Source: an uncultured Planctomycetales bacterium
Lineage (GTDB): Bacteria; Omnitrophota; Gorgyraeia; Zapsychrales; Zapsychraceae
Assembly (NCBI GenBank): GCA_964364455.1
Contig: CAYIMR010000001.1
Span: 2,403-66,402, forward strand
Direction: 5' to 3'
DNA length: 64,000 nt
The notes beneath the pieces are model-generated. The model was not told the DNA's origin, did not search any database, and was given only the letters and a program-made list of their open reading frames with translations. A program made the translations under genes and the position numbers. Below are positions 1,001-17,599 of the stretch, piece by piece; positions within the stretch are counted from its first letter, which is position 1; each line of letters starts with the position of its first letter.

Positions 1001-4000
1001 TTTCACTTCCAGCCAAATAATAATTACAATTTCTGCCAACACAGGCACAAACAAAACCGTAAGCCACCCGAATACATGATATAAAGCATAACCGGCAAGT
1101 CCCACGAAAATTACCATCGCGGTGGTCAATAGCACCATAACACCGTCTACGGCCTTATTCAGTGCCTTCGCTCGCTCAAATACTTTCTTTATCGACTTAA
1201 GCTGTGCCGCGAGCCACGCCGATCCAACCACGGGGCTGGAGGCGCGTAGATGCTTCTCCACCTCATGCAGCCTGATCTCCTTAAATCGCTGCGCCAGTTC
1301 TTCAAAACTTATGTTCAGATTTCCCCGGACAAATTCATACATCTGGCCATATTGTTTGACCAGCCGGATAATGCTGACTTTCTCGTGCCCTATCCTGTAA
1401 GAAGCTTCCATGATGGCCAGCCATCGGGCGTCTTGATGTTCTTGATGTGCGTAATACAATTGCGACACCTCCGTCAAATACTGCGCCAATAATTCCTGGG
1501 ATCTCTTGCGGTAATACTCCACGATCTGCTGTTTCTCCCGATAATGATCCGGCAGTTGCAAGAGCGTCACCACTTCCTCAAAACTGTACCCGCTGTCTTT
1601 AAACACATCCATCAGCCAGCCGTTCACGCCCGTCTCGACATACTCCTTCGGGCCTCCCGTATCCGTCGCGATGTTCGGATGCCCGTTAAACGACGCCCGT
1701 TGATCCGACGTACCCGCGGCCTCCCGCGTTGACCTCGGCATGCTCACCCACACGTCGCTGGCCTGCGTCGCCAGCTTCATGGCCTCCGTGCCTGAACCTT
1801 CCACAAATATAAACTTGCCTTCCAAATCTTCCCTTTTGGCCAAGGCTTTAAATTGCCGCACCCACTCCCGGCCGACGGTATCTCTTCCGACACCGCCGAC
1901 CAATAAATTCATTTCCAATCCGTATTTTCTGCCCAACGGTGTTTCGTATTCCTTGTCCCTGTCTCCTGTAATATACTCGATTAACCCAAACAGGATCCTT
2001 TGCTCCTTATACTCCACCAACCTCCTGACCAATCCGGCCAACGGACGCTCGATATGTCTGAATGCCGTCCCTGTTGTCTTCAGCAAATATTCATTCAACT
2101 TGCCCTTGGCATGCTGGCCGATTTCATACAAGTCAATACCTCTTACCCCTTTCCCGCTTCCCTCCAGATCCATTAGTTCCCCGCTCTTCCACAACCGCGG
2201 ATCCGATCCATTGGTGATCGCCAAGGTCTTTTCTCCGGCCCCCGGCAACACGGCTAACCTCGTCACCTCCCCATGCTCCTGGGCGACCGCGTTGATGACC
2301 GCGACCCGCGGATTCTCCGCCAACCTTCTCGCCAAATCCAAGCTGCCGTCCCGGATAACATAATCCGGCGCCAGACCTTCACCAACATGCATCCTTAACC
2401 AGGAAACACTGTCATACTTCGGCAAAGCCGCCGCCTCCGGTGTGTGCGTGGTGAGGACGACTTTCGTATCCCGGTAAATACTTGCTTCTTTGCGTAGCCT
2501 GAAATAACCATTCTCAAAATACTGAATGTCGTTCTCTACGGCCTGCACCAGGAAAAACAATTGCGGTTCATTCAACCTCAGGATATCCGGCGCGACGCCC
2601 AGCTGTTTGAATAATTCCACATACGTCCTGCCCAAGAACGCCATCTGCCGTAACTTGCCGGGCTCCTCCGGATACAACGCGTAATTAATCTCCGGCTGCC
2701 TGATCATCAATACCGGTGTCCCATGCGTGAGGACCATATACAACCGTACGTTGTACATAGATCCGTTAAATTCGACATCAAACCGGAAGGCCTCTTTCTT
2801 GTGTTCGGCAACAGATAATCTGCCGACCCCGGCCGTATGATCCCAGTCGATCCCGATATAAGTGCCGCCTCCGGCATGGTCCACATAATGTTCATACAAT
2901 GGCATCAAACCCACCACCCTTTGCCCGGTCTGTCCGTACGCGCCGTAGGTTTCGCCGGCGAGGAACCCTAATCCGCCGCTGGCCAACGCCTGTTGTGCCC
3001 GCGGATCCTTGATCTCATCCAGGAACGCCTCCATCGTCGCGTCCACCGCAAACGGCCCTTGCATTAAGTAAGATCGCAGATCCTCAACGCTGCGGATAGA
3101 TCCGGAGCAGATGTCAGTCTTCCGCGCCCCGGCTTGCGTTTGTTCCCTATGACTTTCCGGACTTAAAATCGGGCTGCTGGCCCCGAGCGAAGTCGGGGGG
3201 GAGGCGGTATCCGGGGCTGCCTGCCTTTCTCTTTCGGCTAAAGCCCTGACCGCCTGCAGGAACACTTCCTCGGGATGGTTCCATCCTTCGATAACAATGC
3301 CCGGGTCGATGCGCCGGACTGTTTCCCTGGCCTTCTCCATACTATCAATGCCGGAAAGTCTGTGCAGGCTGTATAAGAAAGATATCAGCAATGACCTCTT
3401 GAACTTCAACTTAAAATACTGGAATTCATCGGGCAGGTTATCCAGCAATGATTTACCGGTGTCACCGATCGGTGCTTCAATGAAATCTTTGATCGTTCCC
3501 TCAAACTGCTTACCGATAAATTCAGAAGTAATCGAAGCTTCGAAATCTTCAAGGTTGGAAACCCTGTCGACAAATTTGCCGATAATCGCACCGGGGCCAA
3601 ACTTGACAATCTCAAACAAGTAATCCGCGGCATCTTTTTTCTTTGTCAAAACCCAGACCAATTCCATCAATCTATCGAGATCAAAAGGTAAACCATGGAT
3701 ATCTTTCCCGATTGCCGCCAGTCCGTCAATGATTTGCGTTTTGATGAGTTCCAGGACCTCTCGCCTTTCTTCATCGCTAACAGGACGCTTGTTTTTATCT
3801 GTAAATTGCGCTCTTCTTTCTTCAGGAGGCAATTTATCATTACGGGCATTCGTAAAATATCGGATAGAATCCTCCACCGCGTCATGCAAAGGCAGCCCCA
3901 GCGCGACAAGAAGATCTCTTCCGGCCCATCTATTGACATACATGGCCAACACCCCCAGGGGATGAGCGATATAAGGGGCGCCACCCTGTCTTATCTGTCC

Positions 4001-7000
4001 GGAATGATGATACTGAGCTATCTTGTAAAAAATTTCAAAAATTTCTCTATCCAAACCCGGCATCAGGCTGCCTGTTCCTGTAAAATCATCGGGGCCGAAG
4101 AAAAGATACCCGGGCAATCCCCGGAGTTTTTCCTGCACAAAACGCTCCACGGTCCCCTCTGCCAGCTTTAAGGAAACCGGCCCCGTTGCTTCATCCATGA
4201 ACGACGCGCGGGCGAAAGCCAAAGCGACATCCTGGCGTTTAATTTTATGAAGCGATTCCAGAACCAATGTAATTCTTGCTTTTCCGTTACTTGATGTTCC
4301 GCTGAAAATCTTCGCGACATTGATTTGAGGGTCGAGCCGCCCGATGGTATCCAGGAGCCAGGAGAGCTGGCCGACCTTGTCAGGAATTTCCACCATAAAT
4401 TCTTCACGGTATATTTTCGTCCACAATAATTTAGGCAGCCACCAGGTTTTTGATACACTCGTTACATCGGCATCCGGAAGGGTACGTAAGGTCTGCGCAA
4501 TAGCTAATGCACGGGCGGCATCAATACCACGGATGGTAAGGTCGACAACGACTTTAACAAATCCTTTCATATTGGCGCGCAGCTCAGCCGGGATCTCTTT
4601 ATCGACATAAACCGTGAAAAAGCGTATATTGCCGCCAAGATTTTTTACCTCGCGGCTTACGGCGCGCAGCATGCCCGGCCTGTCGTGCCGTGCCCAGATT
4701 TGAAGACTAATTTCTCCATCGTAAAATTCTTTTGTGGTCCTGACAAAGATCTTTCTTTTATCCGAAGGCAGTCTTGCCTTGATCTGTTCCGGAGTAATCT
4801 GCTTGCTGCCGGCGGCCGCGATCAGGGAATCGACGTCTTTGAGATGTTCCTTTTCGAAGGTGAGCAAAAGCGTCTCCAGCCGGGCGAAATTATCAGATTT
4901 AGCAAGCTGTTGGCTGTTCTCTAAACTCAGGGCCTGAGCTACAATCTCTTCCCCTTGAATAAGCGCCTCGCGGTGAATATCCTGAACGGACAACAGATCC
5001 AAAGCGACGGCCAGATACAGCGCGTTCCAGTCAGCCAAGTCAAGTTTTCGGGCCAGCGGATCAAGAAAATCCTGCCTGTATGTTTCTAAAGAATGTATAT
5101 AATGGATCCGCATCAGCATCTTGTTCACATTATTGGCCGCATCATCGTTAAGCTTTCTTTTTTCTTCCACGCCCATACCAGCCAATGCCCCGGCAAGTTT
5201 CTCGGACAAATGATTAACCGGCGAGGAAGAAGAAACAGGGCTGGAGGAGGACGGCCCGTTCATCGCGTATTTCGCTCTCTCCAGGTCTTCCTTGATACGC
5301 TTTAACTCCTCCGCGGAAATCCCTTCGGGGTGTTTCAATGTCAACGCGACCGTCGCGAATTTGCCCTCCACTCTCGTTTTAATACTTAAAACATTGATCC
5401 GGGTATCCCTGTCCCAAAGAGCCCGTAACATGTTGACGAGAACCCCCGTTTTGTGTGGAATACGCTCAATTGAAACAGGGACTCTATTGGAATAAATGAA
5501 TTGGGCCATTTTCCGGGTAAAAGCCGGTTCGGGGACTTTGATATCCGGGATCGTTCCCAGGGCTTCCATAATATTATTGATCTTTTCCGGAGTTACGCCT
5601 TCCACCTCCAGGACAATGTTGACTTCTTTTGTCTCATCCGAATCAAAATCGCCAAGATTCGCCCCAAATTCTGAAATAATCTTTGCGACATCCAGAAAGA
5701 TGCCCGGCCAGTCATATCTGCCCGTAACGATGAGCCGCGCGCGGCCATCGCTCACCGCCCCCTCAAGCCTCACCTTGAGGTTGCCCGCTGAAAAGCGTTC
5801 ATTGATAACTTCCGCGTCGATCTGTTTCGTGCCGACCAAGGCATAAAGATCTTCCACGCTCTTTAACCTGAATGACGGGAACGTCCCTAAAAGACGCTCA
5901 AGCATAATGCGCGTATCGGGCAGACTGAAATCAAGCCGTGTCAATCGTTTCTTGAGCATCTGCCCGCCTATTTTGATAGCGCGCTCTTTGATCTGGTCTT
6001 TCGCGATAATTCCAAGCTCTACCGCCATCAATAATTCCCGCGCGTTTTTAAGCCCCAGGTCGAGCGCCATAGGGCCAAGGAATTGATCCGTGCAACTTAT
6101 GATCCCTTCCATCACTTGCGCATGTTCACGCTTGCCAAGACCAAGCATGCCAATGATTAACCGCGCGCGGTTTGTTTTGACCTTGCTGATTATATGCCTG
6201 TCGATGCTCTTGACGGCCTTCCCGCTGACCACCCGTACCGTTAACCCGTTAGATACCGGTTCTGTCGCTGATAACCATTTCTTTTGAGTAACTTCAAAAC
6301 CTTCTTCTCGTTCCACCGCCACAAAAGCCTCTACGCCGGCATATTGGTCATTGAAAAGATCTATATAGCGATGAGCGGCGATATCGGCCGAGATTGAATT
6401 TAAAGGCAGCCGGAGAGGCACAAACTCCCCTTCATTGACGTTGACCGTTACATAAATCCATTGTTTTTCCAGTTTTTGTAACGCTTCAAAATCTTTGGCA
6501 AAATTACCGCTCAATTTTAATTCGGGGATATTCCTGAAGCGCTGCTTGGATAACGTGGGTTCCTTGGATACATTGTAGATCCAATGCGCCCCGCCCGCTT
6601 CCGTGGAGTACTGATAAAGATCAAAATTGGCGGACGTCATGATCTGTATTTCAAAGGGCCTGGTTGAATCATCCCAATAATCTATATGTACCCCTTCGTA
6701 GTGATCCCCTTTTATCCGATTCCTAGGCTTTGCTCCCATCCAATGCCTGCCCGGCATTCTGACAAATTGGTCAATAAGGCCGATAACCTCTCCCATCAAC
6801 ATTTTGTCTTCACTCAAAATGACAAGACGAAATCCGAATAAATCGTTAATGTCATCAAGCGCAACCCCTTTGCGGGTCATCTTGTTCCTTATCGAAGCGG
6901 GGCCTTTAAACCGTCCGGTCACATAGAATTTGTCTGCCGGTATACTGGATTTAAGGTAAATGATCAGGTTCCGGAGTTCCAGGGCAAGGTATTCCTCGGA

Positions 7001-10000
7001 TTGTTCCCTGTTCAAGCCTGTCCGTTTTTTCAAGGCCTCCGCCAACTGCGTATATTCCTCATAATTGGTATAGTAAAACCATTTGTCTCTTAGAAAATCA
7101 GCCATGTCCCGGCGCCCTGACCGTTCAGCCAGCGGAATATAAACTTCCAGGATTTCATAAAGGATCCGCTCGCGCCGTTCCCCGGACGCGCTGGAAAGTG
7201 CCTCTATCTTATCGGCGCAGGCCAACAACAGGACTTTGGCGTTCGCCGCTGTTGTAATAATCATTCCCATCTGGTTGCGCACGACTTCACTTCCCTTAAC
7301 CACCGCCGCGCGTTTCCACAGATCACCAAAGAATGTGTTGATATTTTTAAGTCTCGGCGGATTATATTCAAGATTGCGTAACTCTTTAAGCCCGTTGAGC
7401 AGATCCCAGAGAGCAGTACCTTGGAATTCGGCAATCCCTCGACGGCGAAGTCCTTCCATCTTCGCGGCCTCAAGCAGACTCAACCACGCCGCCGCGACGA
7501 CATCGGCGGACCCGCCAAATGCTTCGACGTGGTTTGCTCTATGTTCCGCGGATTTGTATAATTTTTCATCATATCCTTCCCGGGCAATTTTTTTGGCCTT
7601 TTGAACGATCGGTTCTTCGTTATTTTCATTGACCACCGGACTGCTGGAAGAAAGCTTATCCCCTGCCGGAGAACTCGCATCATCAAGCATCAATGTCTTG
7701 GCCAGTATTCTGAAGTATTCCTGCCGTCCCATGGTGTATTTGAACAGGGCCTCGACGCTTTCGGATGTTTTTTCCCAGCTATTATCCGACATCAGCGCGT
7801 GTGCCCTGAGCGTATCCCACTGATCGTTCTCATTTCTGGCTTTCCACGCGGCGTATAACCGGTCAAAGGCGAACATGATATAGTCCACCGTCCTGTCCAC
7901 TCTGTATTCATCGACAGGGAATCTCGCTCCGTTGAAATCAGGTTCATTGTCATTGATACGGGTGATCCGCGCGAGTTCCGGAACATAGATCGATCTTATC
8001 GTAGATTTATGTCCCTGTTTGTCCGATACCAGCCCGGGGACACCAAAGGCCAAAGCTTCCATAGGTGATATTCCGCCCGGTTCCCACATGGAGAAAGAAT
8101 TGTAGAAATCGCCGATCCCGTAAACGTGATAATAGAGAGGCTTTTGATTGGAAACAAAATCGTTGTTGTATCCAACTCTCCCGGGAAACTCATAGATCAA
8201 CGCGTTGAGTTGCCCCATGAGAAGAGGATCTCCCACCCCGGCAAAGACAAACGACACATCCGGATACCGGCCGCTATACATGACCCTGCGGACAAACGGC
8301 ACCACATACTGAATGCCTTTTTGATCCGTAATACGTGAGACCAGATTACCGACGAAATAATTTTCATTGATATATTCCGATCTGCCGCCGGAGGCCGGCC
8401 AGAATTGAGGATATTCTTCGGCCATGATTATCCTCGACTCGATCTGCTTCTTGCGCTGGATTTTGAGGAACTTCTGCAAATCCTCCGGCGTATGGACGTC
8501 GAACATGGTCATGCCGAAGCGACCGCGCTGACGCTCCCGCAACGGGATACCGTTGGTCACCGAGAATAATCTGCGCGCCTGTTTCTTTTCAATGAACACA
8601 TGACGGAAGCCTTCGGCGCCGCCTTTGTCATCGGTCTGCACATAGTCCCTCAATTGTCCGGGGCTTACCGGCACAATGATGCCGGCGTGCCGGATAAAGG
8701 CGTGCATGAAATTGATCAAATCACTCCTGTGAGGATCAATAAACCATCCGTAATCTTCCGGCGCCAATCCCAGATTGCCCAAAAGATCAACGCCATTCTG
8801 ATAGCGTCCCACCTTGAACTGATAATCCTGCCCGTTGTTATGGATCCATCCGATCGTGCGCGCTTGTGAAAAATGCGGATCTCGCTTATATAAAGACCTG
8901 TCGGAATTAAGATGGGCCATCAGCGGCGCCGTCATCCAGTCGTTCCCGATAATGATGCTCGGATGGATATTAAGCGCCTTCATCGCTTCCAAAGCTCCCA
9001 GGGAGAGGAAGGCGGCGCGCAACGACTCGTGTTCCTTGCTGGATTGTCCGTATAAAGCATCCGCGAAATATGGATTGTCCAGAAAAACATAATCCACATC
9101 TTCAAAATATTTTTCCGCTATGGATCCGGCGACATGCCCGTGCCGCCCTAAGAAGATTTGCGCGACCTTTCCGGTGTACTGGACGGTGGACTTATCAAGA
9201 TTCTGATACTGCGGTAAAACGACATATACCTTTAATCCTGACTTAGCTAATACCATCGCCAACTCTCCAACCACATTGGCCATGCCCCCGGCCTTAAAGT
9301 ACGGCACCGCCTCGGGCGAAACGAAAACCGCCGCCCCGACATCCATCCAGCGGCGGACTTTCTGGGCCGCCTCCCTTACCAATTCATCTTCCGTGCGTTT
9401 CGTCAGGCTCTCCAGCATCCTTTTCATTTTGTCCGCTTCTTTAGGATGTTTAACTGCCATATCATGCATGATCACCGTCAGATCCGTCGTATTAAGCTGG
9501 CCTCGGGTTGCCCGACTCTCGACGATACGCGCTAAATAGGAAAATCGTTCATGGAAAAAGGCATAACTGCGGTGCAGGACGGCTTTTTCAAGCCATCGAA
9601 ACGCGTTATTGACCTTGATCCTTCGCGGCCGATACTGCTCGCTGTAGCGCTTGAGCGCGTCCCGCAGCGCCCGGCCGCGGGCATTCGTCGTAAGACTTCC
9701 GACACCATCGCTTAAATCATCTTTAAGCCCACGGACCTTCCTGACCGCCAGCACGGCCGGCTGATAAGATCCCAGCGTCAATCTTATCCCTTCGGCCAGC
9801 AACTCTTTCCCCGTAAAGACTTCCTCTCTGCCGTTTTCCAGATCCGTTACCATATAGAATTGTTTTGAAGAAGACTCTATCTCCAATTGCTTTTGCAACG
9901 GCGCAAGATCGATACCGGCGAAAGCCGTCTCCCACCATTCGTTGATAACAAATATCAATTTCTCTTTTTTGTTAAACCGCGCGATGGCAAAGATACGGTC

Positions 10001-13000
10001 GTGATGTGTATTGATGAGATATTCATTGCCCGTATGCAAGGATCCATACCGGCGATACGTATTTAACGCGCGCTGATAAAATTGCTGGACCGTTTCCTTG
10101 TAAAGGTTCTCGAATTCCAGTTGAGCGTAATAGCGCTGCCGGTCGGCCTCCGCGTAATTATGCCAGGTATAGTTATCGATACGAACGCGATGCACCTCGC
10201 CTTCTTCCTGGCGGTTATAAATCATGATCGGCCCGCGGGTCGTGGCCAGCCAGGTCCATATCGCCGCCTTGAGCCGGCGCGGCCCGTAATGCTGCCATCT
10301 GTCCATCACGCGGAAGAAGTCATGCGTCTCCAGCGCCCCGACCATTTGCGATCCTTTTGGCAATTCATTCGACAACCACCGGAAATGTCCGTTTAATATC
10401 GTCTGCGTGCTGCCGCCTTCCATAATGACCTTCTGCAGATCCGAATACGTCCCTGTCTCCATCGGCATAACACCGGACTTAAGCAGTTGAATGTCCTTCC
10501 CGTAATTTTCACCCACAAAAATGAAATCGGGATAATCTTTGGTGATGTGGGAAACCAGATACACCAAAAGCGGATTGCCTTCGCCGCCATGCCAATGGTT
10601 AACGACCTTGAATCCACCGTCTTGTTTGCGCTCCCAGGAAGTGACGTGACCGAATAATTTCTGCTTGCCGTTCAATGATCTTTCGGCCGGCAGCATGACA
10701 CCGAAATGATGCGCCACGTCGATGCGTGCCCCTTTAATACCATTTTTGGCCAAGCGCCGGATCAGCGTTTCATAGGCGTATAACACCCGGATATCCCGCC
10801 AGTTGATCACCACCGAATCGTGCCATTCAACCGGAAGCCCGTCCTCGTGGTTAACACTGCCATCGGTCGCCAATCGCCGGATGATCTTACCGAAGGATCT
10901 GGCCTTGACGATCGACCATTCAGGCAGCTGCTTAAAGTTCTGGTTCACGTGGGGGATGAGGTCGACCAAAATTTCTATGCCGTATTTTTCTTTAGCCTTT
11001 TTCACGAGTCTGCTCAATCCTTCTTCACCGCCCAATTCCTTGCTGATATTAAATTCCAGCGGCGAGAATAGCGACGCGTCCGGGCCAACCTGACCGATAA
11101 TGTTTTCCGGCCGATCGAGCTGGTAAACGCCCATCACATAAACGTACGCGAACCCTTGCGCATGGAGATACGGCAGTTTCTCTTCGATCGTCTTGAATGT
11201 CCCGGGAATGGCCCTGCCGTTCTCATCGTGAATAATCTTGCCGTCTTCTCCGTAAACACCCAAATACGCCGGCCAGCCTTGATAGATCATCTTCCCTCTC
11301 AAGTCGGGCTGGGCAAAAATCGTCACATTGGCTTGATCATTTTCAACGTACTGCCAGTCCATGCGCCCGTTATCCTGCAGTTGAACGGCGAGGTGGATAA
11401 CTCCTTTACGCGCCCTGAGAACACGGCTGCCTTCCGAAAAACTTAACCGTATGGAATTGTCCGTCTCCGGCACCACATTCAGCTTCCGGTATCTTTTTTG
11501 CCCGGAATAATTCGTTGCCGTGACCAGCCGCGCGTTGAATGTCTTTAATCTTTTCTTGTTCTTGAAGGGATTAAATCCCGCGTCAATGACCATATCACTG
11601 AACTCGACCGCTTCTCCCAGCTTCGCCATGCGTGTCTCGTGGGCCGCGGGGAATTCTTGCGGCCGGCCGCTATATAAATTGTTCAGGATCTTCTGCGTCA
11701 TCACCTGAATGTGATCGTCCTCAACGCCCAGCGCCGCGTTCAAGATGCGTTTGGCTTCTTCTCCCGCTTTGGGATGATGGACAAGTCCTTCCAGCTGCCG
11801 CACGGCATCGACCATTCTCTGGTGGTCTCCGGAATTTAACTCGTAGACGATCTTGTAAAGGGCGGGATGATTTTGGTAGCGCGCGAGGTCTTCGCGCATA
11901 TCGGAGACTTCCCGGGGATCGGTGATGACATCAACGCGCTGGCCATGCCCGAAGAATGACCGGATGTGGCGCGTATCCGTCAGATAATCCACAAAATGAG
12001 CAGGGGCGATCCTGACGATGGCCTGCTCATCTTTGTTCCATTTGTAATAAAGGTCAATATGCTCATCTTCAAAAAAGACCTCTTTAAATTGTTCGATCCT
12101 TTTACCGACGGCCTTCGGTATGTCCGCCCGCGGCAGGATCTGGCGCAGGATCGTTTGGATACGCGCTCTTCTGTCCACGCCCCGGCGCGCGGTTCTTGCC
12201 TCATAAATTTTCCGTATTAATTTTCGTTCAGCCAACATACGCCAAAACTCGAGGAAAAGCTGTTGCTTGCGGTCCCGTTCCCGCGCGTCCGTGCTCTCAA
12301 TCGGGGAGGAGCTGCGGCTGGAGGCGGAGTCGGCTGAGGTGAGCTCTCGACGGCGAAGTCCTTCCATCTTCGCGGCCTCAAGCAGACTCAACCACGCCGC
12401 CGCGACGACATCGGCGGACCCGCCAAATGCTTCGACGTGGTTTGCTCTATGTTCCGCGGATTTGTATAATTTTTCATCATATCCTTCCCGGGCAATTTTT
12501 TTGGCCTTTTGAACGATCGGTTCTTCGTTATTTTCATTGACCACCGGACTGCTGGAAGAATCATTCTGCCTCTTTAAAATAAGCATGCCCAGCGGCGGAA
12601 GTGTGAGATTCAGCGAATAAGGCCGGCCGTGCGTGGAGACAGGTTGCGCCATAACACCGCCGGAGTTTCCGATGTTGCCACCGCCGTAAATGTCCGCGTC
12701 GCTATTGAGGATTTTCTGCCAATATCCGCCCTGCGGCACGCCGATACGGTAATCCTGCCGGAGCAGGGGTGTGAAGTTCATAACCACCACGACGTTGCCT
12801 TGAGGATTTCGACCCCGGCGTATGAAGCTGATTACACTTTGCTCCCAATCACTAAAATCGATCCACTCAAAACCATGCCCTTCGAAATCCACCTCATGAA
12901 GGGCGGACTCGCGGCGGTAGAGACCGTTGAGATCCCGCACCCATCTCTGCGTCCCTTGATGGCCGGGATAATTCCGAAGATGCCATTCAATTGCTGTATT

Positions 13001-16000
13001 CGCGTCCCACTCTTTCGCCTGCCCGAATTCCCCGCCCATAAACAACAACTTCTTGCCGGGCATGGTAAACTGCAGACCGAAAAGTAATCTCAAGTTGGCA
13101 AAGACCTGCCGCTCGTCGCCAGGCATTCTTTCTTTCAGCGAGCGCTTGCCGTGAACGACTTCATCATGCGAAAGCGGAAGAACAAAATTCTCGGTAGAAG
13201 CGTAGACCAGATAAAATGTCAAAAGATGCTGGTTGAATTTCCGATAAATGGGATCGAGCTTCATATATTCCAGGGTATCGTGCATCCAGCCCATGGACCA
13301 TTTCATCGAAAAGCCGAGACCACCCATATCCGCCGGGCGGGAGACCATCGGCCAGGAAGTCGATTCTTCGGCGATGGTCAAAATGCCCGGATATTGCCCA
13401 TGCGCAGCGATGTTGAAATCTTTCAGAAACGCGACGGCTTCGAGGTTCTCCCTTCCGCCATAAACGTTGGGAATCCATTCGCCGTCTTTACGCGAATAAT
13501 CGCGGTAGAGCATTGATGCCACCGCGTCCACCCGCAGGCCGTCGATATGATACTTCTCAAGCCAGAAGAGAGCGTTGGCGATCAGAAAACTGCGCACCTC
13601 ATGGCGGCTGTAATTAAAGGTGTTTGTGCCCCAGTCCGGATGATCCCGTTCGCGCGCGTCGCTGTAGGAGAAAAGATGCGTGCCGTCAAAATTGTAAAGC
13701 CCGACTTCATCCTTCGGGAAATGCGCCGGCACCCAATCAACAAGGACTCCAATGCCCTGCTGATGCAGATGATCCACCAGATACATGAAATCCTGCGGCG
13801 TGCCGTAACGCGACGTCGGGGCATAGAAATTGCTGACCTGATAACCCCAGGAAGGATAATAAAGATGTTCCGCGACAGGCATAAATTCAACGTGGGTAAA
13901 GTTCATGTCTTTGACATATTGGGCCAGACGCGGCGCGATCTCGCGATAAGTTAACCATCGGTTGTTCTCCCCGCGCAGCCAGGATCCGAGGTGAATTTCA
14001 TAAACGGAAACCGGCGCGTCCAAGGCCTGCTTTCGGGCGCGCTCACCCATCCACTGCGCGTCTTGCCATTCGTAGTCCAGACCCCAGATAATCGAAGCGT
14101 TACTGGCGGGCTGTTCGCTCGTCGGGAACTGATTAAATGAAGCGCAGGGATCAGATTTCATGCGCGTTATACCATCCGCGCCCTTCACGGCGAATTTATA
14201 AACCGTGCCCGCGCCGATATTCGGGACAAAGATAGCCCAGATACCGGCGTCCAGACGCCAGAGGCAATGCGCACCCTGATCCCATTCATTGAAATCACCG
14301 ACCAGAGAAATTGCCTGCGCGTTGGGCGCCCACACGGCAAAATACGTGCCGATCGTCCGGCCGTCGGCCTGAATCAGATGCGCCCCAAGCTTCTCATAAA
14401 TACGGTAATGCGTCCCTTGGCCGACCAAAAGTTGTCTGTCGAAATCACTTAAATGGAGCTTTTGAATCTCTTTTAGAACCGCCGGATAAGACAGTTCTAC
14501 AATCCTGTTCTCGCGCTCCACAGAGGCAAGGAAGTTATTCAATTCCCGTGGATGAACCGCGTAATAAACATACATGATTTCCAACGCCGAAACCGGACTG
14601 GAAGAGGCTTCCGCAATAATCACCCGGCCGTTTTTGCCGAATCTGCTCACTAAGTTTAAATTTTTGCGTGGGGCAGGATCACCGGTAATGAAGACTTCTT
14701 CCCGATCCGTTTGAATCATCCCGGCCACATAGGAATCATGGCGGATATTCCCGGTTTCTAACGGCCGCCCATTAACTTCTATATTCTTAAGAAGAGTCTG
14801 CATGGCCCGGAGTTCATCCATAGAACTAGTGTCATCGGACAATTTTCTCCCGATCTTTTGCGCTATGGAAGCCAACCAATTAAGACCTGTGCTTCCAACA
14901 CCCTTACCCTGCAATTTTGCATCGACAAAATGATTTAGCACCAAAATACTGTTTTTTGAGACGAAGAACTCAAGAACGCCGATGGGCACGGATTTCTCTC
15001 CCATGGAATAATTGTAGGCGTAATATTGCACTCCATCACAAGAGGGCCTCTTTGCGCCGCGGCCTTGGATGGTAATCTTTTTAATCGAAGAATCTCCTTC
15101 AATGTTGTCCAATACCATGCGCGCGGGCAAAATAACCAAGCCCTTCCCGCTTCCTTGTACCGGTGAAGAGGAATACTTCCGTTCTCCCTTGGCCTGGACT
15201 TCGGCGACAACGGCGCGCGCGGGTATGGATCGATCGAGCGGAATGTTGATGAAGATCGACTCTTCCGCCGGTTTGGCATGAACTTCTTTAAATCGCTGGA
15301 CAACGCCTTGTGCGGAGTCACCAGACACACTCCGGGCACCGAACAGACCTCTGGAACCTGACATTGTCAAAATCGATTCTTCACCAGGAATTGTGCCGAT
15401 CGCAGGCGGATCGCGGAAGCTTAACTTGTGGCCGCGTCTGTTTTCAGCGAGGAGATAATTCCCGCCGTACCCAAGATAGCCGGCAATAGCCAGCCGGACA
15501 GCGGATGCGTCATGATGAGCTGGATTATCGATGGCAAGCCAGAGACCATACCATTGACCATTGACCATTGACCATTGACCATAAACTGATACCGGGATCA
15601 CGGCCGGAGTCTGCGGCAACGCCGCCGGTACCGCCGGAACGTTCGTTGTTGTATGGGCGGCTTTGAAGCTGAATTTCTTGGCATTGACCGCCATCTGTCC
15701 GGCCATATCCGCGATTACCTTGAGATCTTTGACGGAAACGATCTTTGTGCCGGCTGTGTTATGAGCGCGGACATATTCCGCCCAGACAAGATCATTGACA
15801 TCAACAACAGGCGAAGAAGAAGAGGCGACCACCGCGCCGACGGGCGAATTCGTTATTTCGTCTTTCGTCTTTCGTCCTTCGTCCGTCATTTCCTGTTCAC
15901 TGTACCCTGTCCCTGCACCAAGGGATACCCTGTCCCCTGCATCCATTGCTTCCTTCAGACTCAAAACAACCAGACCCTTCTTCTTGCGCTTAGGCTGGGT

Positions 16001-16039
16001 CTTCGCCCATTCGTCATAGCGCGGAAACCACAACGCCAT
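1..16039 (-). CDS. Giant multidomain fusion ORF (ORF-L). The C-terminal part continues past window position 1. The start is provisionally the ATG at 16037-16039 (MALWFPRYDEWAKTQ...), but the true start could lie as far up as about 16200.
   Basis: Hand translation of the reverse strand gives continuous protein-like sequence with the recognisable domains listed below. No stops were met in the followed frame, but continuity between anchors was not exhaustively checked. Plus-strand ORFs over this span in the track (e.g. 12629..13087, 13547..13954) look like antisense artefacts. Confidence 0.45.
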   Translation of the reverse strand, partial: MALWFPRYDEWAKTQPKRKKKGLVVLSLKEAMDAGDRVSLGAGTGYSEQEMTDEGRKTKDEITNSPVGAVVASSSSPVVDVNDLVWAEYVRAHNTAGTKIVSVKDLKVIADMAGQMAVNAKKFSFKAAHTTTNVPAVPAALPQTPAVIPVSVYGQWSMVNGQWYGLWLAIDNPAHHDASAVRLAIAGYLGYGGNYLLAENRRGHKLSFRDPPAIGTIPGEESILTMSGSRGLFGARSVSGDSAQGVVQRFKEVHAKPAEESIFINIPLDRSIPARAVVAEVQAKGERKYSSSPVQGSGKGLVILPARMVLDNIEGDSSIKKITIQGRGAKRPSCDGVQYYAYNYSMGEKSVPIGVLEFFVSKNSILVLNHFVDAKLQGKGVGSTGLNWLASIAQKIGRKLSDDTSSMDELRAMQTLLKNIEVNGRPLETGNIRHDSYVAGMIQTDREEVFITGDPAPRKNLNLVSRFGKNGRVIIAEASSSPVSALEIMYVYYAVHPRELNNFLASVERENRIVELSYPAVLKEIQKLHLSDFDRQLLVGQGTHYRIYEKLGAHLIQADGRTIGTYFAVWAPNAQAISLVGDFNEWDQGAHCLWRLDAGIWAIFVPNIGAGTVYKFAVKGADGITRMKSDPCASFNQFPTSEQPASNASIIWGLDYEWQDAQWMGERARKQALDAPVSVYEIHLGSWLRGENNRWLTYREIAPRLAQYVKDMNFTHVEFMPVAEHLYYPSWGYQVSNFYAPTSRYGTPQDFMYLVDHLHQQGIGVLVDWVPAHFPKDEVGLYNFDGTHLFSYSDARERDHPDWGTNTFNYSRHEVRSFLIANALFWLEKYHIDGLRVDAVASMLYRDYSRKDGEWIPNVYGGRENLEAVAFLKDFNIAAHGQYPGILTIAEESTSWPMVSRPADMGGLGFSMKWSMGWMHDTLEYMKLDPIYRKFNQHLLTFYLVYASTENFVLPLSHDEVVHGKRSLKERMPGDERQVFANLRLLFGLQFTMPGKKLLFMGGEFGQAKEWDANTAIEWHLRNYPGHQGTQRWVRDLNGLYRRESALHEVDFEGHGFEWIDFSDWEQSVISFIRRGRNPQGNVVVVMNFTPLLRQDYRIGVPQGGYWQKILNSDADIYGGGNIGNSGGVMAQPVSTHGRPYSLNLTLPPLGMLILKRQNDSSSSPVVNENNEEPIVQKAKKIAREGYDEKLYKSAEHRANHVEAFGGSADVVAAAWLSLLEAAKMEGLRRRELTSADSASSRSSSPIESTDARERDRKQQLFLEFWRMLAERKLIRKIYEARTARRGVDRRARIQTILRQILPRADIPKAVGKRIEQFKEVFFEDEHIDLYYKWNKDEQAIVRIAPAHFVDYLTDTRHIRSFFGHGQRVDVITDPREVSDMREDLARYQNHPALYKIVYELNSGDHQRMVDAVRQLEGLVHHPKAGEEAKRILNAALGVEDDHIQVMTQKILNNLYSGRPQEFPAAHETRMAKLGEAVEFSDMVIDAGFNPFKNKKRLKTFNARLVTATNYSGQKRYRKLNVVPETDNSIRLSFSEGSRVLRARKGVIHLAVQLQDNGRMDWQYVENDQANVTIFAQPDLRGKMIYQGWPAYLGVYGEDGKIIHDENGRAIPGTFKTIEEKLPYLHAQGFAYVYVMGVYQLDRPENIIGQVGPDASLFSPLEFNISKELGGEEGLSRLVKKAKEKYGIEILVDLIPHVNQNFKQLPEWSIVKARSFGKIIRRLATDGSVNHEDGLPVEWHDSVVINWRDIRVLYAYETLIRRLAKNGIKGARIDVAHHFGVMLPAERSLNGKQKLFGHVTSWERKQDGGFKVVNHWHGGEGNPLLVYLVSHITKDYPDFIFVGENYGKDIQLLKSGVMPMETGTYSDLQKVIMEGGSTQTILNGHFRWLSNELPKGSQMVGALETHDFFRVMDRWQHYGPRRLKAAIWTWLATTRGPIMIYNRQEEGEVHRVRIDNYTWHNYAEADRQRYYAQLEFENLYKETVQQFYQRALNTYRRYGSLHTGNEYLINTHHDRIFAIARFNKKEKLIFVINEWWETAFAGIDLAPLQKQLEIESSSKQFYMVTDLENGREEVFTGKELLAEGIRLTLGSYQPAVLAVRKVRGLKDDLSDGVGSLTTNARGRALRDALKRYSEQYRPRRIKVNNAFRWLEKAVLHRSYAFFHERFSYLARIVESRATRGQLNTTDLTVIMHDMAVKHPKEADKMKRMLESLTKRTEDELVREAAQKVRRWMDVGAAVFVSPEAVPYFKAGGMANVVGELAMVLAKSGLKVYVVLPQYQNLDKSTVQYTGKVAQIFLGRHGHVAGSIAEKYFEDVDYVFLDNPYFADALYGQSSKEHESLRAAFLSLGALEAMKALNIHPSIIIGNDWMTAPLMAHLNSDRSLYKRDPHFSQARTIGWIHNNGQDYQFKVGRYQNGVDLLGNLGLAPEDYGWFIDPHRSDLINFMHAFIRHAGIIVPVSPGQLRDYVQTDDKGGAEGFRHVFIEKKQARRLFSVTNGIPLRERQRGRFGMTMFDVHTPEDLQKFLKIQRKKQIESRIIMAEEYPQFWPASGGRSEYINENYFVGNLVSRITDQKGIQYVVPFVRRVMYSGRYPDVSFVFAGVGDPLLMGQLNALIYEFPGRVGYNNDFVSNQKPLYYHVYGIGDFYNSFSMWEPGGISPMEALAFGVPGLVSDKQGHKSTIRSIYVPELARITRINDNEPDFNGARFPVDEYRVDRTVDYIMFAFDRLYAAWKARNENDQWDTLRAHALMSDNSWEKTSESVEALFKYTMGRQEYFRILAKTLMLDDASSPAGDKLSSSSPVVNENNEEPIVQKAKKIAREGYDEKLYKSAEHRANHVEAFGGSADVVAAAWLSLLEAAKMEGLRRRGIAEFQGTALWDLLNGLKELRNLEYNPPRLKNINTFFGDLWKRAAVVKGSEVVRNQMGMIITTAANAKVLLLACADKIEALSSASGERRERILYEILEVYIPLAERSGRRDMADFLRDKWFYYTNYEEYTQLAEALKKRTGLNREQSEEYLALELRNLIIYLKSSIPADKFYVTGRFKGPASIRNKMTRKGVALDDINDLFGFRLVILSEDKMLMGEVIGLIDQFVRMPGRHWMGAKPRNRIKGDHYEGVHIDYWDDSTRPFEIQIMTSANFDLYQYSTEAGGAHWIYNVSKEPTLSKQRFRNIPELKLSGNFAKDFEALQKLEKQWIYVTVNVNEGEFVPLRLPLNSISADIAAHRYIDLFNDQYAGVEAFVAVEREEGFEVTQKKWLSATEPVSNGLTVRVVSGKAVKSIDRHIISKVKTNRARLIIGMLGLGKREHAQVMEGIISCTDQFLGPMALDLGLKNARELLMAVELGIIAKDQIKERAIKIGGQMLKKRLTRLDFSLPDTRIMLERLLGTFPSFRLKSVEDLYALVGTKQIDAEVINERFSAGNLKVRLEGAVSDGRARLIVTGRYDWPGIFLDVAKIISEFGANLGDFDSDETKEVNIVLEVEGVTPEKINNIMEALGTIPDIKVPEPAFTRKMAQFIYSNRVPVSIERIPHKTGVLVNMLRALWDRDTRINVLSIKTRVEGKFATVALTLKHPEGISAEELKRIKEDLERAKYAMNGPSSSSPVSSSSPVNHLSEKLAGALAGMGVEEKRKLNDDAANNVNKMLMRIHYIHSLETYRQDFLDPLARKLDLADWNALYLAVALDLLSVQDIHREALIQGEEIVAQALSLENSQQLAKSDNFARLETLLLTFEKEHLKDVDSLIAAAGSKQITPEQIKARLPSDKRKIFVRTTKEFYDGEISLQIWARHDRPGMLRAVSREVKNLGGNIRFFTVYVDKEIPAELRANMKGFVKVVVDLTIRGIDAARALAIAQTLRTLPDADVTSVSKTWWLPKLLWTKIYREEFMVEIPDKVGQLSWLLDTIGRLDPQINVAKIFSGTSSNGKARITLVLESLHKIKRQDVALAFARASFMDEATGPVSLKLAEGTVERFVQEKLRGLPGYLFFGPDDFTGTGSLMPGLDREIFEIFYKIAQYHHSGQIRQGGAPYIAHPLGVLAMYVNRWAGRDLLVALGLPLHDAVEDSIRYFTNARNDKLPPEERRAQFTDKNKRPVSDEERREVLELIKTQIIDGLAAIGKDIHGLPFDLDRLMELVWVLTKKKDAADYLFEIVKFGPGAIIGKFVDRVSNLEDFEASITSEFIGKQFEGTIKDFIEAPIGDTGKSLLDNLPDEFQYFKLKFKRSLLISFLYSLHRLSGIDSMEKARETVRRIDPGIVIEGWNHPEEVFLQAVRALAERERQAAPDTASPPTSLGASSPILSPESHREQTQAGARKTDICSGSIRSVEDLRSYLMQGPFAVDATMEAFLDEIKDPRAQQALASGGLGFLAGETYGAYGQTGQRVVGLMPLYEHYVDHAGGGTYIGIDWDHTAGVGRLSVAEHKKEAFRFDVEFNGSMYNVRLYMVLTHGTPVLMIRQPEINYALYPEEPGKLRQMAFLGRTYVELFKQLGVAPDILRLNEPQLFFLVQAVENDIQYFENGYFRLRKEASIYRDTKVVLTTHTPEAAALPKYDSVSWLRMHVGEGLAPDYVIRDGSLDLARRLAENPRVAVINAVAQEHGEVTRLAVLPGAGEKTLAITNGSDPRLWKSGELMDLEGSGKGVRGIDLYEIGQHAKGKLNEYLLKTTGTAFRHIERPLAGLVRRLVEYKEQRILFGLIEYITGDRDKEYETPLGRKYGLEMNLLVGGVGRDTVGREWVRQFKALAKREDLEGKFIFVEGSGTEAMKLATQASDVWVSMPRSTREAAGTSDQRASFNGHPNIATDTGGPKEYVETGVNGWLMDVFKDSGYSFEEVVTLLQLPDHYREKQQIVEYYRKRSQELLAQYLTEVSQLYYAHQEHQDARWLAIMEASYRIGHEKVSIIRLVKQYGQMYEFVRGNLNISFEELAQRFKEIRLHEVEKHLRASSPVVGSAWLAAQLKSIKKVFERAKALNKAVDGVMVLLTTAMVIFVGLAGYALYHVFGWLTVLFVPVLAEIVIIIWLEVKAERRAKDENTTRKAAIDVIPVVHPAVLVQPTEPKNELLEWFKRNPWYYEYGQYGTKDPEVALERLLAQARTGDPKSLRTIGDTIVDYEIRRLPSVLAQFANDDALVKQLAQRAGADIPFSSDAPDRLDDFKALRALQQLHALPELVQLGRHATKSELAIEALQELEATEQLTTLASETPNAQDVIKIITWLAGRGDTASLRMLRQNAGLLIRLNQWFFGNLESDDTAIFDLLTMQGVPSAVLRERAQVIFQRQAEYISGTGWSLDGNTRFAVAYLAVLAILAGLPGLSEDSEIKELRSKIINQARLTAAPQKHSWMGGETNASFAFGREYFRN
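1000..1200 (-). other. Module: two predicted transmembrane helices
   Basis: Translation reads VDGVMVLLTTAMVIFVGLAGYALYHVFGWLTVLFVPVLAEIVIIIWLEVKAERR. Confidence 0.4.
1500..3100 (-). other. Module: GT35-family alpha-glucan (glycogen/maltodextrin) phosphorylase-like
   Basis: Motifs ASGGLGFLAGETYG (verified at 2941-3000), VVLTTHTPEAAALPKYD (verified at 2401-2460), and a C-terminal ...SMPRSTREAAGTSDQRASFNGHPNIATDTGGPKEYVETGVNGWLM (EASGTSGMK-like, Lys not conserved). Confidence 0.55.
3200..4100 (-). other. Module: HD-superfamily (RelA/SpoT-type) hydrolase domain
   Basis: HHSGQIRQGGAPYIAHPLGVLAMYV...LHDAVEDS verified against plus-strand 3901-4020. A downstream ...KFVDRVSNLED matches the ADRLHNMRT-like motif. 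Confidence 0.6.
4100..5230 (-). other. Module: two ACT-like regulatory domains
   Basis: ISLQIWARHDRPGMLRAVSREVKNLGGNIRFFTV and MVEIPDKVGQLSWLLDTIGRLDPQINVAKIF.... Confidence 0.4.
5250..7440 (-). other. Module: RelA/SpoT-homologue (RSH) block containing a (p)ppGpp-synthetase-like domain, a TGS-like domain and an ACT domain, preceded by an HD-like helical segment
   Basis: Synthetase motif EIQIMTSANFDLYQYSTEAGGAHWIYN verified at about 6560-6680, and GRFKGPASIRNKMTRKG upstream. TGS-like at about 6370-6470. ACT GRARLIVTGRYDWPGIFLDVAKIISEFGANL at about 5300-5560. KVLLLACADKIEAL...ILYEILEVYIPLAERSG at about 7300-7420. Confidence 0.55.
7438..7655. repeat. Exact 216-bp direct repeat, copy A. It lies inside ORF-L coding sequence and encodes ...RRRLGEMKAAELLSLWAAAVVDASGGFAEVHNARHEASKYLKEDYGERAIKKAKQVIPEENNENVVPSSSS on the minus strand (given C- to N-terminus, i.e. 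in plus-strand coordinate order).
   Basis: Base-for-base identical to 12344-12561 by direct comparison. The flanks diverge immediately on both sides. Confidence 0.85.
7700..9600 (-). other. Module: GT5/GT4 glycogen(starch)-synthase-like glycosyltransferase
   Basis: AAVFVSPEAVPYFKAGGMANVVGELAMVLAKSGLKVYVVLP and ...SMWEPGGISPMEALAFGVPGLVSDKQG, matching the KTGGLADV and SxFEPCGLxQ motif positions. Confidence 0.45.
9700..12290 (-). other. Module: GH13 alpha-amylase-family catalytic domain with an N-terminal extension (GlgE/amylosucrase-like)
   Basis: Region I ILVDLIPHVNQN verified at 10931-10965. Region II GARIDVAHHFG verified at 10693-10731. Region III FIFVGENYG. Region IV GALETHDFF. Confidence 0.55.
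12344..12561. repeat. Exact 216-bp direct repeat, copy B
   Basis: Identical to 7438-7655. The upstream context differs (ELTSADSASSRSSSPI...). Confidence 0.85.
12600..14580 (-). other. glgB: Module: 1,4-alpha-glucan branching enzyme (GlgB, GH13_9)-like
   Basis: YEKLGAHL, VWAPNAQAISLVGDFNEWD, VYEIHLGSW, LRVDAVASMLY, HDEVVHGK. ...PGILTIAEESTSWPMVSRP verified at 13321-13380. Confidence 0.6.
14620..15160 (-). other. Module: GNAT-type N-acetyltransferase-like
   Basis: VDAKLQGKGVGSTGLNWLASIAQKIGRK matches GNAT motif A. The module is flanked by SSSPVQ (verified at about 15165-15185) and SSSPVS (about 14590). Confidence 0.4.
15553..15585. repeat. Tandem repeat (CCATTGAC)x4 inside coding sequence. 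It encodes a Gly-Gln-Trp repeat (YGQWSMVNGQWYGLW).
   Basis: Directly visible: ccattgaccattgaccattgaccattgacca. Confidence 0.8.
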
Positions 16040-16287
16040 CTGGAATTCCTTATCGGACAACTTGATCTTGACGGAATTCAACGCGGCGGACGCGCGGCCG
16101 CTGAAGTAAGCCCAAGCATCAACTAGGCTCAATTGAATCTTACCGTCGAAGCCGGGCACCAGAACGATTTCGGCAATCTTGACAATCCTGAAAGGCGCGA
16201 CTATACTTGGGATGAATATGAAAGGATTCTTTACTAATCGCAGGCGTGAACTGGTCGGCAAAAGTTTTGTGACTACCGAGGAATAAA

Positions 16288-16380
16288 ATGTTTTTAGCAG
16301 GCCTATTAGCGGTAGCCGCCATAGCCGTGGTAATTGCCGTGTGGTTTGGAATCGATCAATACCGCGCCCATCACCACTAA
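16288..16380 (+). CDS. Small hydrophobic peptide 1 (30 aa): MFLAGLLAVAAIAVVIAVWFGIDQYRAHHH
   Basis: ATG 16288 is preceded by GAGGA 7 nt upstream. One predicted TM helix followed by DQYR and a His3 tail. Paralogous to the next two peptides. Confidence 0.5.
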   Translation: MFLAGLLAVAAIAVVIAVWFGIDQYRAHHH

Positions 16381-16437
16381 TCATTGCCCCTAAAGGCGCC
16401 GCCCCACCCGGTATTCTCGGTTGCCCGGAAAGGAGTG

Positions 16438-16539
16438 ATGAATAAAATGTTATTCGTACTGGTAACGTTCTTGATGATCGGCCTGGCTTTCTTGATCTGG
16501 ATTGCCATCGACCAATACCGCCTGAAACATCATCATTGA
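16438..16539 (+). CDS. Small hydrophobic peptide 2 (33 aa): MNKMLFVLVTFLMIGLAFLIWIAIDQYRLKHHH
   Basis: AAAGGAG Shine-Dalgarno 3-9 nt upstream of the ATG. Same TM helix plus IDQYR plus HHH pattern. Confidence 0.5.
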   Translation: MNKMLFVLVTFLMIGLAFLIWIAIDQYRLKHHH

Positions 16540-16741
16540 CCGGGTCTGCTTCGTCCCTCGCCCCTCGTCCCTCGTCCTTCATGGCCTCAAAATTCGGCGC
16601 GTTGGTCTTTCGGGCCAGATCTTCCTGAATGCCGCCCTGCGCCAAGACGCCCAAAGAAGCCGTTCGGATTGAGCCGAAGGTTAAGTTGACGAGAGACCGC
16701 GGATATGTTATAGCTACACTGTTAAATCGGGAGGTGGGATA

Positions 16742-16843
16742 ATGGGAATATATATTTTGCTCGGCGGGTTTCTTATCTTCGCGCTTATTATCGCCGAGAT
16801 CGTGATCCGTCAGGACAGGGGCCGCCATCATCACGGAGCTTGA
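16742..16843 (+). CDS. Small hydrophobic peptide 3 (33 aa): MGIYILLGGFLIFALIIAEIVIRQDRGRHHHGA
   Basis: GGGAGG upstream of the ATG. Third paralogue, with a more diverged tail (RQDRGRHHH). Confidence 0.45.
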   Translation: MGIYILLGGFLIFALIIAEIVIRQDRGRHHHGA

Positions 16844-16967
16844 TCCGCGCGATCCTTCTCCGATCGAGGCCTTCTGCGGCTTAAATATAATTCCGCCTTG
16901 ACCATATCTCTCAGACATGTTAGGATTTGACGATAATTTAGAGTAATCTTTAAAAGGAACAGAAAAG

Positions 16968-17207
16968 ATGAAACGATTAAAAGTCTTTAATAATGACCAA
17001 TGGCTGACTAAGCACTTTAAAGAATTAGTAGATAAATACGCTGGTGGATTCATTATCGCGGTTAACGGCAAGATCGTATATACCAACAAAGACGGCTCAC
17101 CGCGCGATTTAGGGAAACGCGTCAAAAGAGAATTCCCTGATGCTACGCCCTTGTTTTTCCGAGTCCCATATCCCCATGAATTTATATGCGCTCTAATCAT
17201 TCTATAA
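16968..17207 (+). CDS. DUF5678-like small protein
   Basis: In the ORF track: MKRLKVFNNDQWLTKHFKELVDKYAGGFIIAVNGKIVYTNKDGSPRDLGKRVKREF.... AAGGAACAG sits upstream of the ATG. From memory this family is typically paired with a retropepsin-like protease. Confidence 0.6.
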   Translation: MKRLKVFNNDQWLTKHFKELVDKYAGGFIIAVNGKIVYTNKDGSPRDLGKRVKREFPDATPLFFRVPYPHEFICALIIL

Positions 17208-17587: not shown

Positions 17588-17599
17588 TTCTTCAGCGCC

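Follow-up and report, generated by a model that had tools for sequence, protein, structure and literature searches.

Giant genes of the Omnitrophota have been described as 'Archaeovorins' (West-Roberts et al. 2023, bioRxiv 10.1101/2023.11.21.568195), and giants of the 'multi-enzyme metabolic cluster' type form class 1 in the survey of Nielsen & Lui (2026, bioRxiv 10.64898/2026.06.07.730766). How domains are incorporated into giant genes was left open and the cleavage points of their products are unknown (West-Roberts et al. 2023); the origin and domain gain of bacterial genes of 30,000–150,000 codons is explicitly an open question in that work. Nucleotide-level traces of repeats in giant genes have mostly decayed (Nielsen & Lui 2026). 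This report concerns a perfect 215-bp direct repeat, here called R, in a 64,000-nucleotide stretch (the window) of contig CAYIMR010000001.1 from an uncultured bacterium assigned to the Omnitrophota (assembly GCA_964364455.1). Both copies of R lie within one giant open reading frame (ORF) and bracket a cassette of two enzyme modules that is missing from a related metagenome-assembled genome (MAG).

The frame is a fragment of an Omnitrophota-type multi-enzyme giant gene. It shares with the described giants a length of more than 21,000 codons, peptidoglycan-degrading domains (SLT, M23), glycogen synthase/GT1, methyltransferase and radical SAM modules, HD-type regulators and candidate transmembrane (TM) helices. 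Its closest relative is an Omnitrophica MAG, and its homologue P0001 is followed by a type II secretion system-like (T2SS-like) locus. It differs from the described giants in carrying a perfect dispersed (non-tandem) 215-bp repeat around a cassette that shows presence/absence variation relative to the MAG.

Segmental insertions and deletions bounded by direct repeats are familiar from bacterial genetics, as is RecA-dependent deletion between such repeats. The present locus resembles these systems, with identical repeats flanking a segment and with a relative whose state is the recombination product. Unlike them, the event lies within one reading frame, the repeat consists of a linker plus a partial domain, and both the long and the short form are translatable with the downstream module intact. 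The mycolactone polyketide synthases of Mycobacterium ulcerans reportedly contain near-identical segments that stem from recent recombination. They too are encoded by giant modular genes in which identical DNA betrays recent reshuffling of modules. There, whole catalytic domains of one assembly line are repeated many times, whereas here a partial-domain stub is repeated once among unrelated stand-alone enzymes (GlgB, GH13-like, GlgA and a RelA/SpoT homologue, RSH). Microhomology-guided template switching (fork stalling and template switching, FoSTeS, and microhomology-mediated break-induced replication, MMBIR) and homology-facilitated illegitimate recombination are further known routes. An insertion of distant sequence with duplication of the target, and one junction in a recurrent short motif, would fit a mechanism of this kind.

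We read the two copies of R, with a probability of about 0.55, as the mark left when a 4.7-kb cassette was recently inserted in frame, with duplication of the target. The frame and the features concerned, in gene order, are as follows.

2..64000, minus strand: single stop-free frame of 21,333 codons, running off both window ends (six-frame scan)
12563..14602, minus strand: module A, glycogen branching enzyme GlgB-like (CBM48, alpha-amylase catalytic and alpha-amylase C-terminal domains), residues 16467–17146 (Pfam)
12346..12560, minus strand: R2, the gene-upstream copy of R, an orphan stub, residues 17148–17219 (exact match, translation, context)
9761..12345, minus strand: first half of cassette B, an N-terminal linker (ELTSADSASSRSSSPIESTDARERDRK) and the GH13-like alpha-amylase-family module X, residues 17220–18080 (Pfam Alpha-amylase)
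7653..9760, minus strand: second half of cassette B, a GT5/GT1 glycogen synthase (GlgA-like) and a C-terminal linker (...MLDDASSPAGDKL), residues 18081–18783 (Pfam Glyco_transf_5)
7438..7652, minus strand: R1, the gene-downstream copy of R, native linker and RSH N-terminus, residues 18784–18855 (exact match, HD_4 alignment)
5243..7437, minus strand: module C, what remains of the RSH module after R1 (pseudo-HD domain past R1, synthetase domain and ACT region); it extends to the next SSSSPV linker (residue 19586) (Pfam HD_4, RelA_SpoT, ACT_4)

In a re-anchored self-comparison the copies at 7438–7652 and 12346–12560 are identical at 215/215 positions. An earlier reading of the same DNA from its letters alone (the sequence-only reading) had reported an exact 216-bp duplication. 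The identity holds; the length is 215 bp, and the second interval had been shifted by 2 bp so that the two intervals as written differ. It was right that the copies lie 4.9 kb apart in the same ORF. Their start-to-start spacing is 4908 bp (3 × 1636), so they are in frame, and both belong to one stop-free frame of the minus strand. It had placed the linker at the end of both copies; in gene orientation the copies begin with it (SSSSPVVNENNEEP). Outside both edges of R the identity falls at once to the random background of ~25%, and the next-longest exact direct repeats in the window measure 26 bp and 24 bp. Thus, R is real in the sequence and far beyond chance. Identical copies, sharp boundaries and lack of flanking homology are the marks of a recent segmental duplication or of a repeat-flanked insertion.

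A blastn comparison of the window with itself, for which the sequence-only reading had proposed a dot-plot, returned the R pair and one other similarity, between 61281–61765 and 61956–62437 (73%; 77% over a 227-nt core). These two segments are neighbouring paralogous P-loop modules with weak HPr-kinase and AAA_29 matches. The earlier statement that other paralogous modules are about 80% identical comes near the truth for this one pair (73–77% at the DNA level). It fails for the two glycogen-synthase modules of the window, which share ~24–29% protein identity (BLAST self-comparison of the giant protein, made in chunks).

The translation of R in gene orientation is SSSSPVVNENNEEPIVQKAKKIAREGYDEKLYKSAEHRANHVEAFGGSADVVAAAWLSLLEAAKMEGLRRR. 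It comprises an 'SSSSPVV' inter-module linker and the first ~59 residues, about one third, of the pseudo-hydrolase (HD) domain of the RSH module. R1 is continuous with this domain: Pfam HD_4 aligns residues 18805–18962 to model positions 11–154, of which R covers ~11–60. The RSH modules of five other giant proteins align from residues 18797–18804 onward, just past the linker. A MAFFT alignment with canonical Rel proteins shows that R spans the first helices through the 'HD' helix and that the boundary between R and module C follows directly. R2, on the other hand, starts at the natural C-terminus of GlgB (...LPPLGMLILKRQND). Over 100 GlgB proteins, either fused or free-standing, are 50–60% identical to module A, and most of their alignments stop at residues 17142–17149; GlgB alignments that seem to reach into R2 are spurious extensions. 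After the residues RRR, R2 enters a ELTSADSASSRSSSPIES linker and then the cassette, with no continuation of the HD domain. Since the HD_4, RSH and MAFFT alignments place R within an HD domain, R1 is the native copy and R2 a partial-domain stub.

The assignment of the RSH module is based on HD_4 (E 6e-10) and RelA_SpoT (E 1.7e-9), both above the Pfam cut-offs and in the domain order of RSH proteins, and on matches to Rel/RelA structures in the PDB (E 1e-14). The catalytic His-Asp dyad of the hydrolase is replaced by Ser-Leu at the aligned positions (WLSLLE), which points to a RelA-like pseudo-hydrolase. HD_4, RelA_SpoT and ACT together, with AAAWLSLLE aligned to xxALLHDxxED, resemble RelA-type RSH proteins that have a degenerate hydrolase domain. 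In contrast to these, the present module is embedded in a giant polypeptide; its activity is predicted.

The empty site is found in contig JACQCG010000054.1 (GCA_016201705.1, 'Candidatus Omnitrophica bacterium', 5,844 bp; L001 below), one short MAG contig. A protein from this contig (P0121) is 86% identical to R1 plus the RSH module. By blastn, L001 1218–2557 corresponds to window 15202–13860 (94%), L001 2557–3654 to window 13423–12346 with the end of GlgB and R (85%), and L001 3445–5844 to window 7647–5299 with R and RSH (89.7%, which is also the nucleotide identity of module C). The order in L001 is GlgB-R-RSH with one R, and the whole 4908-bp unit of one R and the cassette is missing. Both the GlgB-to-R2 and the R1-to-RSH junctions of the window are collinear with L001. 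The two novel junctions, CGTCGAG|AGCTCACC between R2 and the cassette and GATAAGCT|TTCTTCC between the cassette and R1, are in frame. R differs between the window and L001 at 28–32 of 215 nucleotides and 14 of 71 residues, and at none between R1 and R2. In the protein database that holds the proteins of the L001 MAG, the homologues of the cassette that were found reached at most 62% identity.

Besides this MAG (86% amino-acid and 85–94% nucleotide identity), the only close relative is a metagenome fragment from JGI. No closer relatives were found in the GTDB representative genomes or in a scan of JGI metagenome contigs with R plus RSH. The fragment (P0150/L005; JGI 3300045502, Ga0494960_01090028) measures 911 bp and derives from a strain with 98.6% nucleotide identity. 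It says nothing on the upstream side of R, since it starts 38 nt inside R. Within the part that codes for the RelA_SpoT synthetase domain, all similarity stops after window position 6614, so that the last 52 nt of the fragment do not match the window; either the contig end is chimeric or a further rearrangement has its breakpoint here.

The order of events is suggested by the linker between GlgB and RSH, where the window (12561–12585) and L001 (3374–3460) differ by 45 bp in frame. L001 has two adjacent linker motifs after GlgB (QND-SSSPADGGVSGERSRTT-SSPVV) and the window has one (QND-SSSSPVV). The linker DNA of L001 reads GAT TCT TCC AGC CCC...45 bp...ACC ACC AGC AGC CCG GTG. The fused linker of the window, GAT TCT TCC AGC|AGT CCG GTG, equals that of L001 minus 45 bp between two CCAGC pentamers. 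Judged from these sequences, a 45-bp microhomology deletion here is more likely than a novel 45-bp insertion in L001. The 10 nt to the left of the fusion (TTCTTCCAGC) agree at 10/10 positions with the GlgB-proximal motif of L001 and at 6/10 with its R-proximal motif AACCACCAGC. As TTCTTCCAGC lies inside both copies of R, the duplication of R would post-date the 45-bp fusion and hence the split from the relative. The simplest order would thus be the split, then the 45-bp fusion, then the duplication of R with arrival of the cassette. The fusion also indicates that neighbouring linker motifs do recombine.

The cassette itself (4.7 kb, residues 17220–18783) encodes two enzymes. Module X matches Pfam Alpha-amylase with E 1.9e-11 (44 bits against a cut-off of 22); its homologues P0130–P0132 carry PF00128, and homologue alignments start at residues 17245–17328. 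The glycogen synthase matches Glyco_transf_5 (E 1.7e-41) and contains a KAGGM motif. Both ends of the cassette fall in linkers, and it carries SSSPI and SSPA motifs of its own. X and GlgA are contiguous in the proteins P0127 (58% identity, 99% coverage), P0128 (61–62%), P0129 (45%) and P0130 (51%) as well as in four metagenomic loci (L006–L009), each a single giant ORF; more remote matches are amylase-GlgA fusion proteins of 1,400–1,600 residues. The neighbours differ in each of these proteins and loci, so the pair behaves as a cassette over evolutionary time. In L007 (Ga0209201_1000074, 5180–14458), the cassette homologue is immediately preceded by an RSH-like module and by a counterpart (40% identity) of window residues 20311–20956, the GT module that follows RSH in the window. 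The three modules are thus neighbours in both genes but stand in another order, which is suggestive of shuffling and not decisive for polarity. P0129 has HD-type domains after the cassette, but these do not match the RSH module of the window. GC content, GC at third codon positions (GC3), codon use and tetranucleotides of the cassette are typical for the giant gene; a foreign origin is unsupported, there being no compositional signal for it.

The reading as a recent insertion starts from what is directly observed, namely the repeat and what it encodes, the cassette, the sequences at the junctions and the presence of one R in the relative. The ancestral order would have been GlgB-linker-RSH, as still seen in the related Omnitrophota MAG. 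In the lineage of the window, a self-contained cassette with its own linkers would have been placed between GlgB and RSH. The insertion would also have duplicated the first 215 bp of the RSH module, which kept the downstream RSH intact (R1) and left an orphan stub after GlgB (R2). As mechanism we infer an illegitimate, microhomology-guided template switch or break repair. On reaching the end of R, synthesis would have departed from the GlgB-R-RSH template and continued on a donor, from which the cassette and its linkers were copied. It would then have re-annealed at the linker motif before R, so that R was copied again with the frame and RSH intact. A return junction in linker-motif DNA is proposed as the reason why R starts exactly at the SSSP[V/I] motif and why the frame was kept. 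Only in-frame outcomes that preserve RSH would survive selection.

Several points weigh against this reading. The polarity depends on one relative and on the assumption that the 45-bp difference is a deletion here, and a donor copy of the cassette was found neither in the window (blastn) nor in the databases (best match 62%). L001 is a short contig of 5.8 kb, and its assembler path may have skipped a repeat-flanked loop. Furthermore, L001 is rich in deletions: 437 bp and 25 bp are missing inside GlgB and ~580 bp further upstream, so that loss of the cassette in that lineage is biologically plausible. Copy number and population state of R are taken from the assembled contig. Polarity (insertion here or deletion in L001), mechanism, including the template switch, and excisability are what we infer from the sequences.

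The two deletions within GlgB of L001 (~2555–3380) add up to 462 bp (3 × 154), and the frame is shifted and then restored. The giant ORF of L001 is interrupted at GlgB, and the NCBI protein is called from MLILKRQND. These deletions reflect either decay of the glycogen modules in that strain or errors of the MAG assembly.

The same data can be turned around. GlgB-R-cassette-R-RSH may be an old structure from which the relative lost one R and the cassette by recombination, while gene conversion kept the copies identical in the window or made them so recently. We consider this unlikely. A deletion between the 215-bp direct repeats would yield exactly the GlgB-R-RSH order of L001, which has other derived deletions nearby and a broken GlgB. 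GlgB is also followed by this type of GlgA in the distant homologue P0001, and the cassette looks resident by composition rather than foreign. However, more events are needed: the duplication would be ancient, the relative would have suffered a deletion, the 45-bp fusion would have occurred in one copy, and conversion would have had to spread this fusion and ~28 or more substitutions over the whole unit. A repeat that was older and once longer might have left diverged homology next to the 215 bp, and there is none. Moreover, both copies of R begin at their 5' edge with 10 nt of GlgB-proximal linker, and sequence at the very margin of homology is difficult to transfer by conversion. Gene conversion has a possible place only within this less parsimonious scenario. 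If deletion and gene conversion were the correct explanation, the locus would still show that close strains can differ in the presence of whole modules of a giant gene.

A mis-joined contig at the repeat, in the window or in L001, is very unlikely. It might stem from a wrong copy number of a loop, from a chromosome together with a circular R-cassette molecule, or from mixed strains. An exact 215-bp repeat exceeds the usual k-mers of short-read assembly and is a classic site of graph ambiguity; the 98.6%-identical strain is represented by a mere 911-bp fragment that starts inside R, so such samples assemble poorly here. On the other hand, reads that connect R with the cassette at either end are needed for the path GlgB-R-cassette-R-RSH, and the two novel junctions keep the frame (~1/9 by chance) and lie in linker sequence. 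The uninterrupted 64-kb ORF also argues for an assembly of high quality. A collapse would lower the number of copies and not create them, and a graph of a circle plus a deleted chromosome would itself have arisen from the integrated form.

A gene conversion that made the N-terminal parts of two RSH paralogues identical and the insertion of a mobile element with target-site duplication are both close to negligible. Conversion, which the sequence-only reading had offered as a recent event, is the usual explanation for identical short segments in modular megasynthase paralogues, but no second RSH module exists. R2 leads instead into a linker and then into a GH13-like module, unrelated to RSH, and R is absent from all homologues of that module. 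A segment inserted between direct repeats does recall transposition. The insertion of a transposon or insertion sequence is expected to bring a transposase or integrase, terminal inverted repeats and a target duplication of 2–14 bp. Here, neither transposase, integrase, inverted repeats, tRNA nor RNA family was found within the cassette or beside it; the inserted DNA codes in frame for ordinary enzymes (GH13-like and GT5/GT1) and for nothing else, and the duplication is 215 bp long. To our knowledge, 215 bp far exceeds any known target-site duplication.

Two further schemes were considered. A tandem duplication with internal deletion finds no support within the window: it predicts a second cassette, and none is present in the gene within 49 kb upstream or 7 kb downstream. 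An independent insertion of R2 into GlgB-cassette-RSH, with separate loss of the cassette in the relative, was rejected, as it would need two events at the same nucleotide and a 10/10-nt coincidence.

On the reading of a recent insertion, the R2 stub is a segment of 81 residues between two linker motifs. It may be tolerated because of this position. It is the sole such short 'module' in the window, where the other distances between motifs are either 6–27 residues (double motifs) or at least 153 residues. The earlier idea of recombination that shuffles modules is partly supported, as the trace of a single event: the cassette is bracketed by the repeat, has an empty site in the relative and stands beside other modules in other giant genes. 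The proposed 'hot spot' finds no support, the stub being the only one of its kind in the window. Double motifs 6–27 residues apart occur at six other places in the window and are possibly old cassette joints.

A tetrapeptide, [A/S]SSP[V/I], recurs along the giant protein like a punctuation mark. SSPV is the most enriched of all 4-mers, with 27 occurrences where 0.21 would be expected; for SSP the count is 35 and the expectation 2.9. Examples are found at residues 319, 697, 921, 17150, 17231, 18776, 18786, 19586, 19592, 20275 and 20921. By inspection, all sites lie between Pfam-defined modules and none inside one. The serine codons vary (AGC or TCN), which indicates a constraint at the protein level. 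One edge of R falls exactly on this recurrent motif. Among the 33 other motif sites, 7 have DNA that matches the 5' end of R over at least 8 nt (8–13 nt); for random windows the proportion is 0.8%. SSSP[V/I] is a candidate module delimiter or processing site. If the motifs are processing sites as well, the orphan stub would leave the giant protein as a harmless peptide of 81 residues.

The motif is also enriched in P0127; other giants seem to use different motifs (GARA five times in P0152, ASSA five times in P0167). Residues 3577–11484 (~29550–53270) form an SSP-free stretch of 7,900 residues with SLT, M23 and peptidoglycan-binding domains. It is bounded by clusters of candidate TM helices and contains such clusters (3016–3893, 9194–11137). 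The motif thus seems confined to the presumably cytoplasmic parts with enzyme modules.

Perfect direct repeats of 215 bp would permit precise in-frame excision of the cassette by RecA-type recombination, with GlgB-R-RSH as the product. A wider proposal is that SSSP[V/I] DNA serves as a general in-frame microhomology guide by which cassettes are inserted, fused and excised, and that the R pair makes the glycogen cassette reversibly excisable, with on/off variation at the population level. We regard this as quite doubtful.

Read as an insertion, the locus would provide a dated example at nucleotide resolution, with a two-enzyme cassette, both junctions, the empty site and a compensating duplication of part of a domain, by which the downstream module stays intact. 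Segmental insertions and deletions flanked by repeats are known in kind; new here is their action on whole enzyme modules within one giant frame. Module gain and loss in giant genes become directly testable, and the SSSP[V/I] linker may help to guide rearrangements that keep the frame. We take the locus as one case of module gain or loss, the polarity of which falls short of proof.

The remainder of the window agrees with a giant gene. A single predicted protein of 21,333 codons exceeds 10,000 residues, and many distinct enzyme families are tiled along it. Pfam matches include P-loop, SLT, M23, PG_binding, radical SAM, GFO_IDH, UDPGP and methyltransferase domains, and additionally two GT5/GT1 glycogen synthases, a complete GlgB and the HD_4, RelA_SpoT and ACT domains of the RSH module. 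There are 22 cysteines in the 21,333 residues, and a crude hydropathy scan suggests ~25 candidate TM helices, which group into four clusters. SecA DEAD-like and C39 peptidase domains, of which such giants carry one or the other, had no Pfam match within the window; the ends of the gene and its neighbours fall outside it. The window contains no marker gene. The homologues of the cassette are labelled Omnitrophota, in line with the label of the L001 MAG.

No Rfam RNA family was found in the window, promoters and terminators did not exceed the shuffled expectation, and the plus strand held short or unsupported ORFs and no plausible genes. Six long antisense ORFs (173–432 residues) follow one another on the plus strand at 37886–44089, inside the giant ORF; none has a Pfam match, and the run probably reflects codon composition rather than genes. 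GC3 ranges from 0.46 to 0.75 across stretches of 1,564 codons of the one ORF, a compositional mosaic. At ~15190–16690 (residues ~15770–16270) the translation of the giant frame looks atypical, e.g. GRGIDRFQTTRQLPRLWRLPLIG. Identity to the relative is as low as 35% in this region, where the alignment is broken by many gaps and the lengths differ by ~580 bp. The region overlaps a plus-strand ORF at 15653–16126 and 7-bp-period repeats at 15550.

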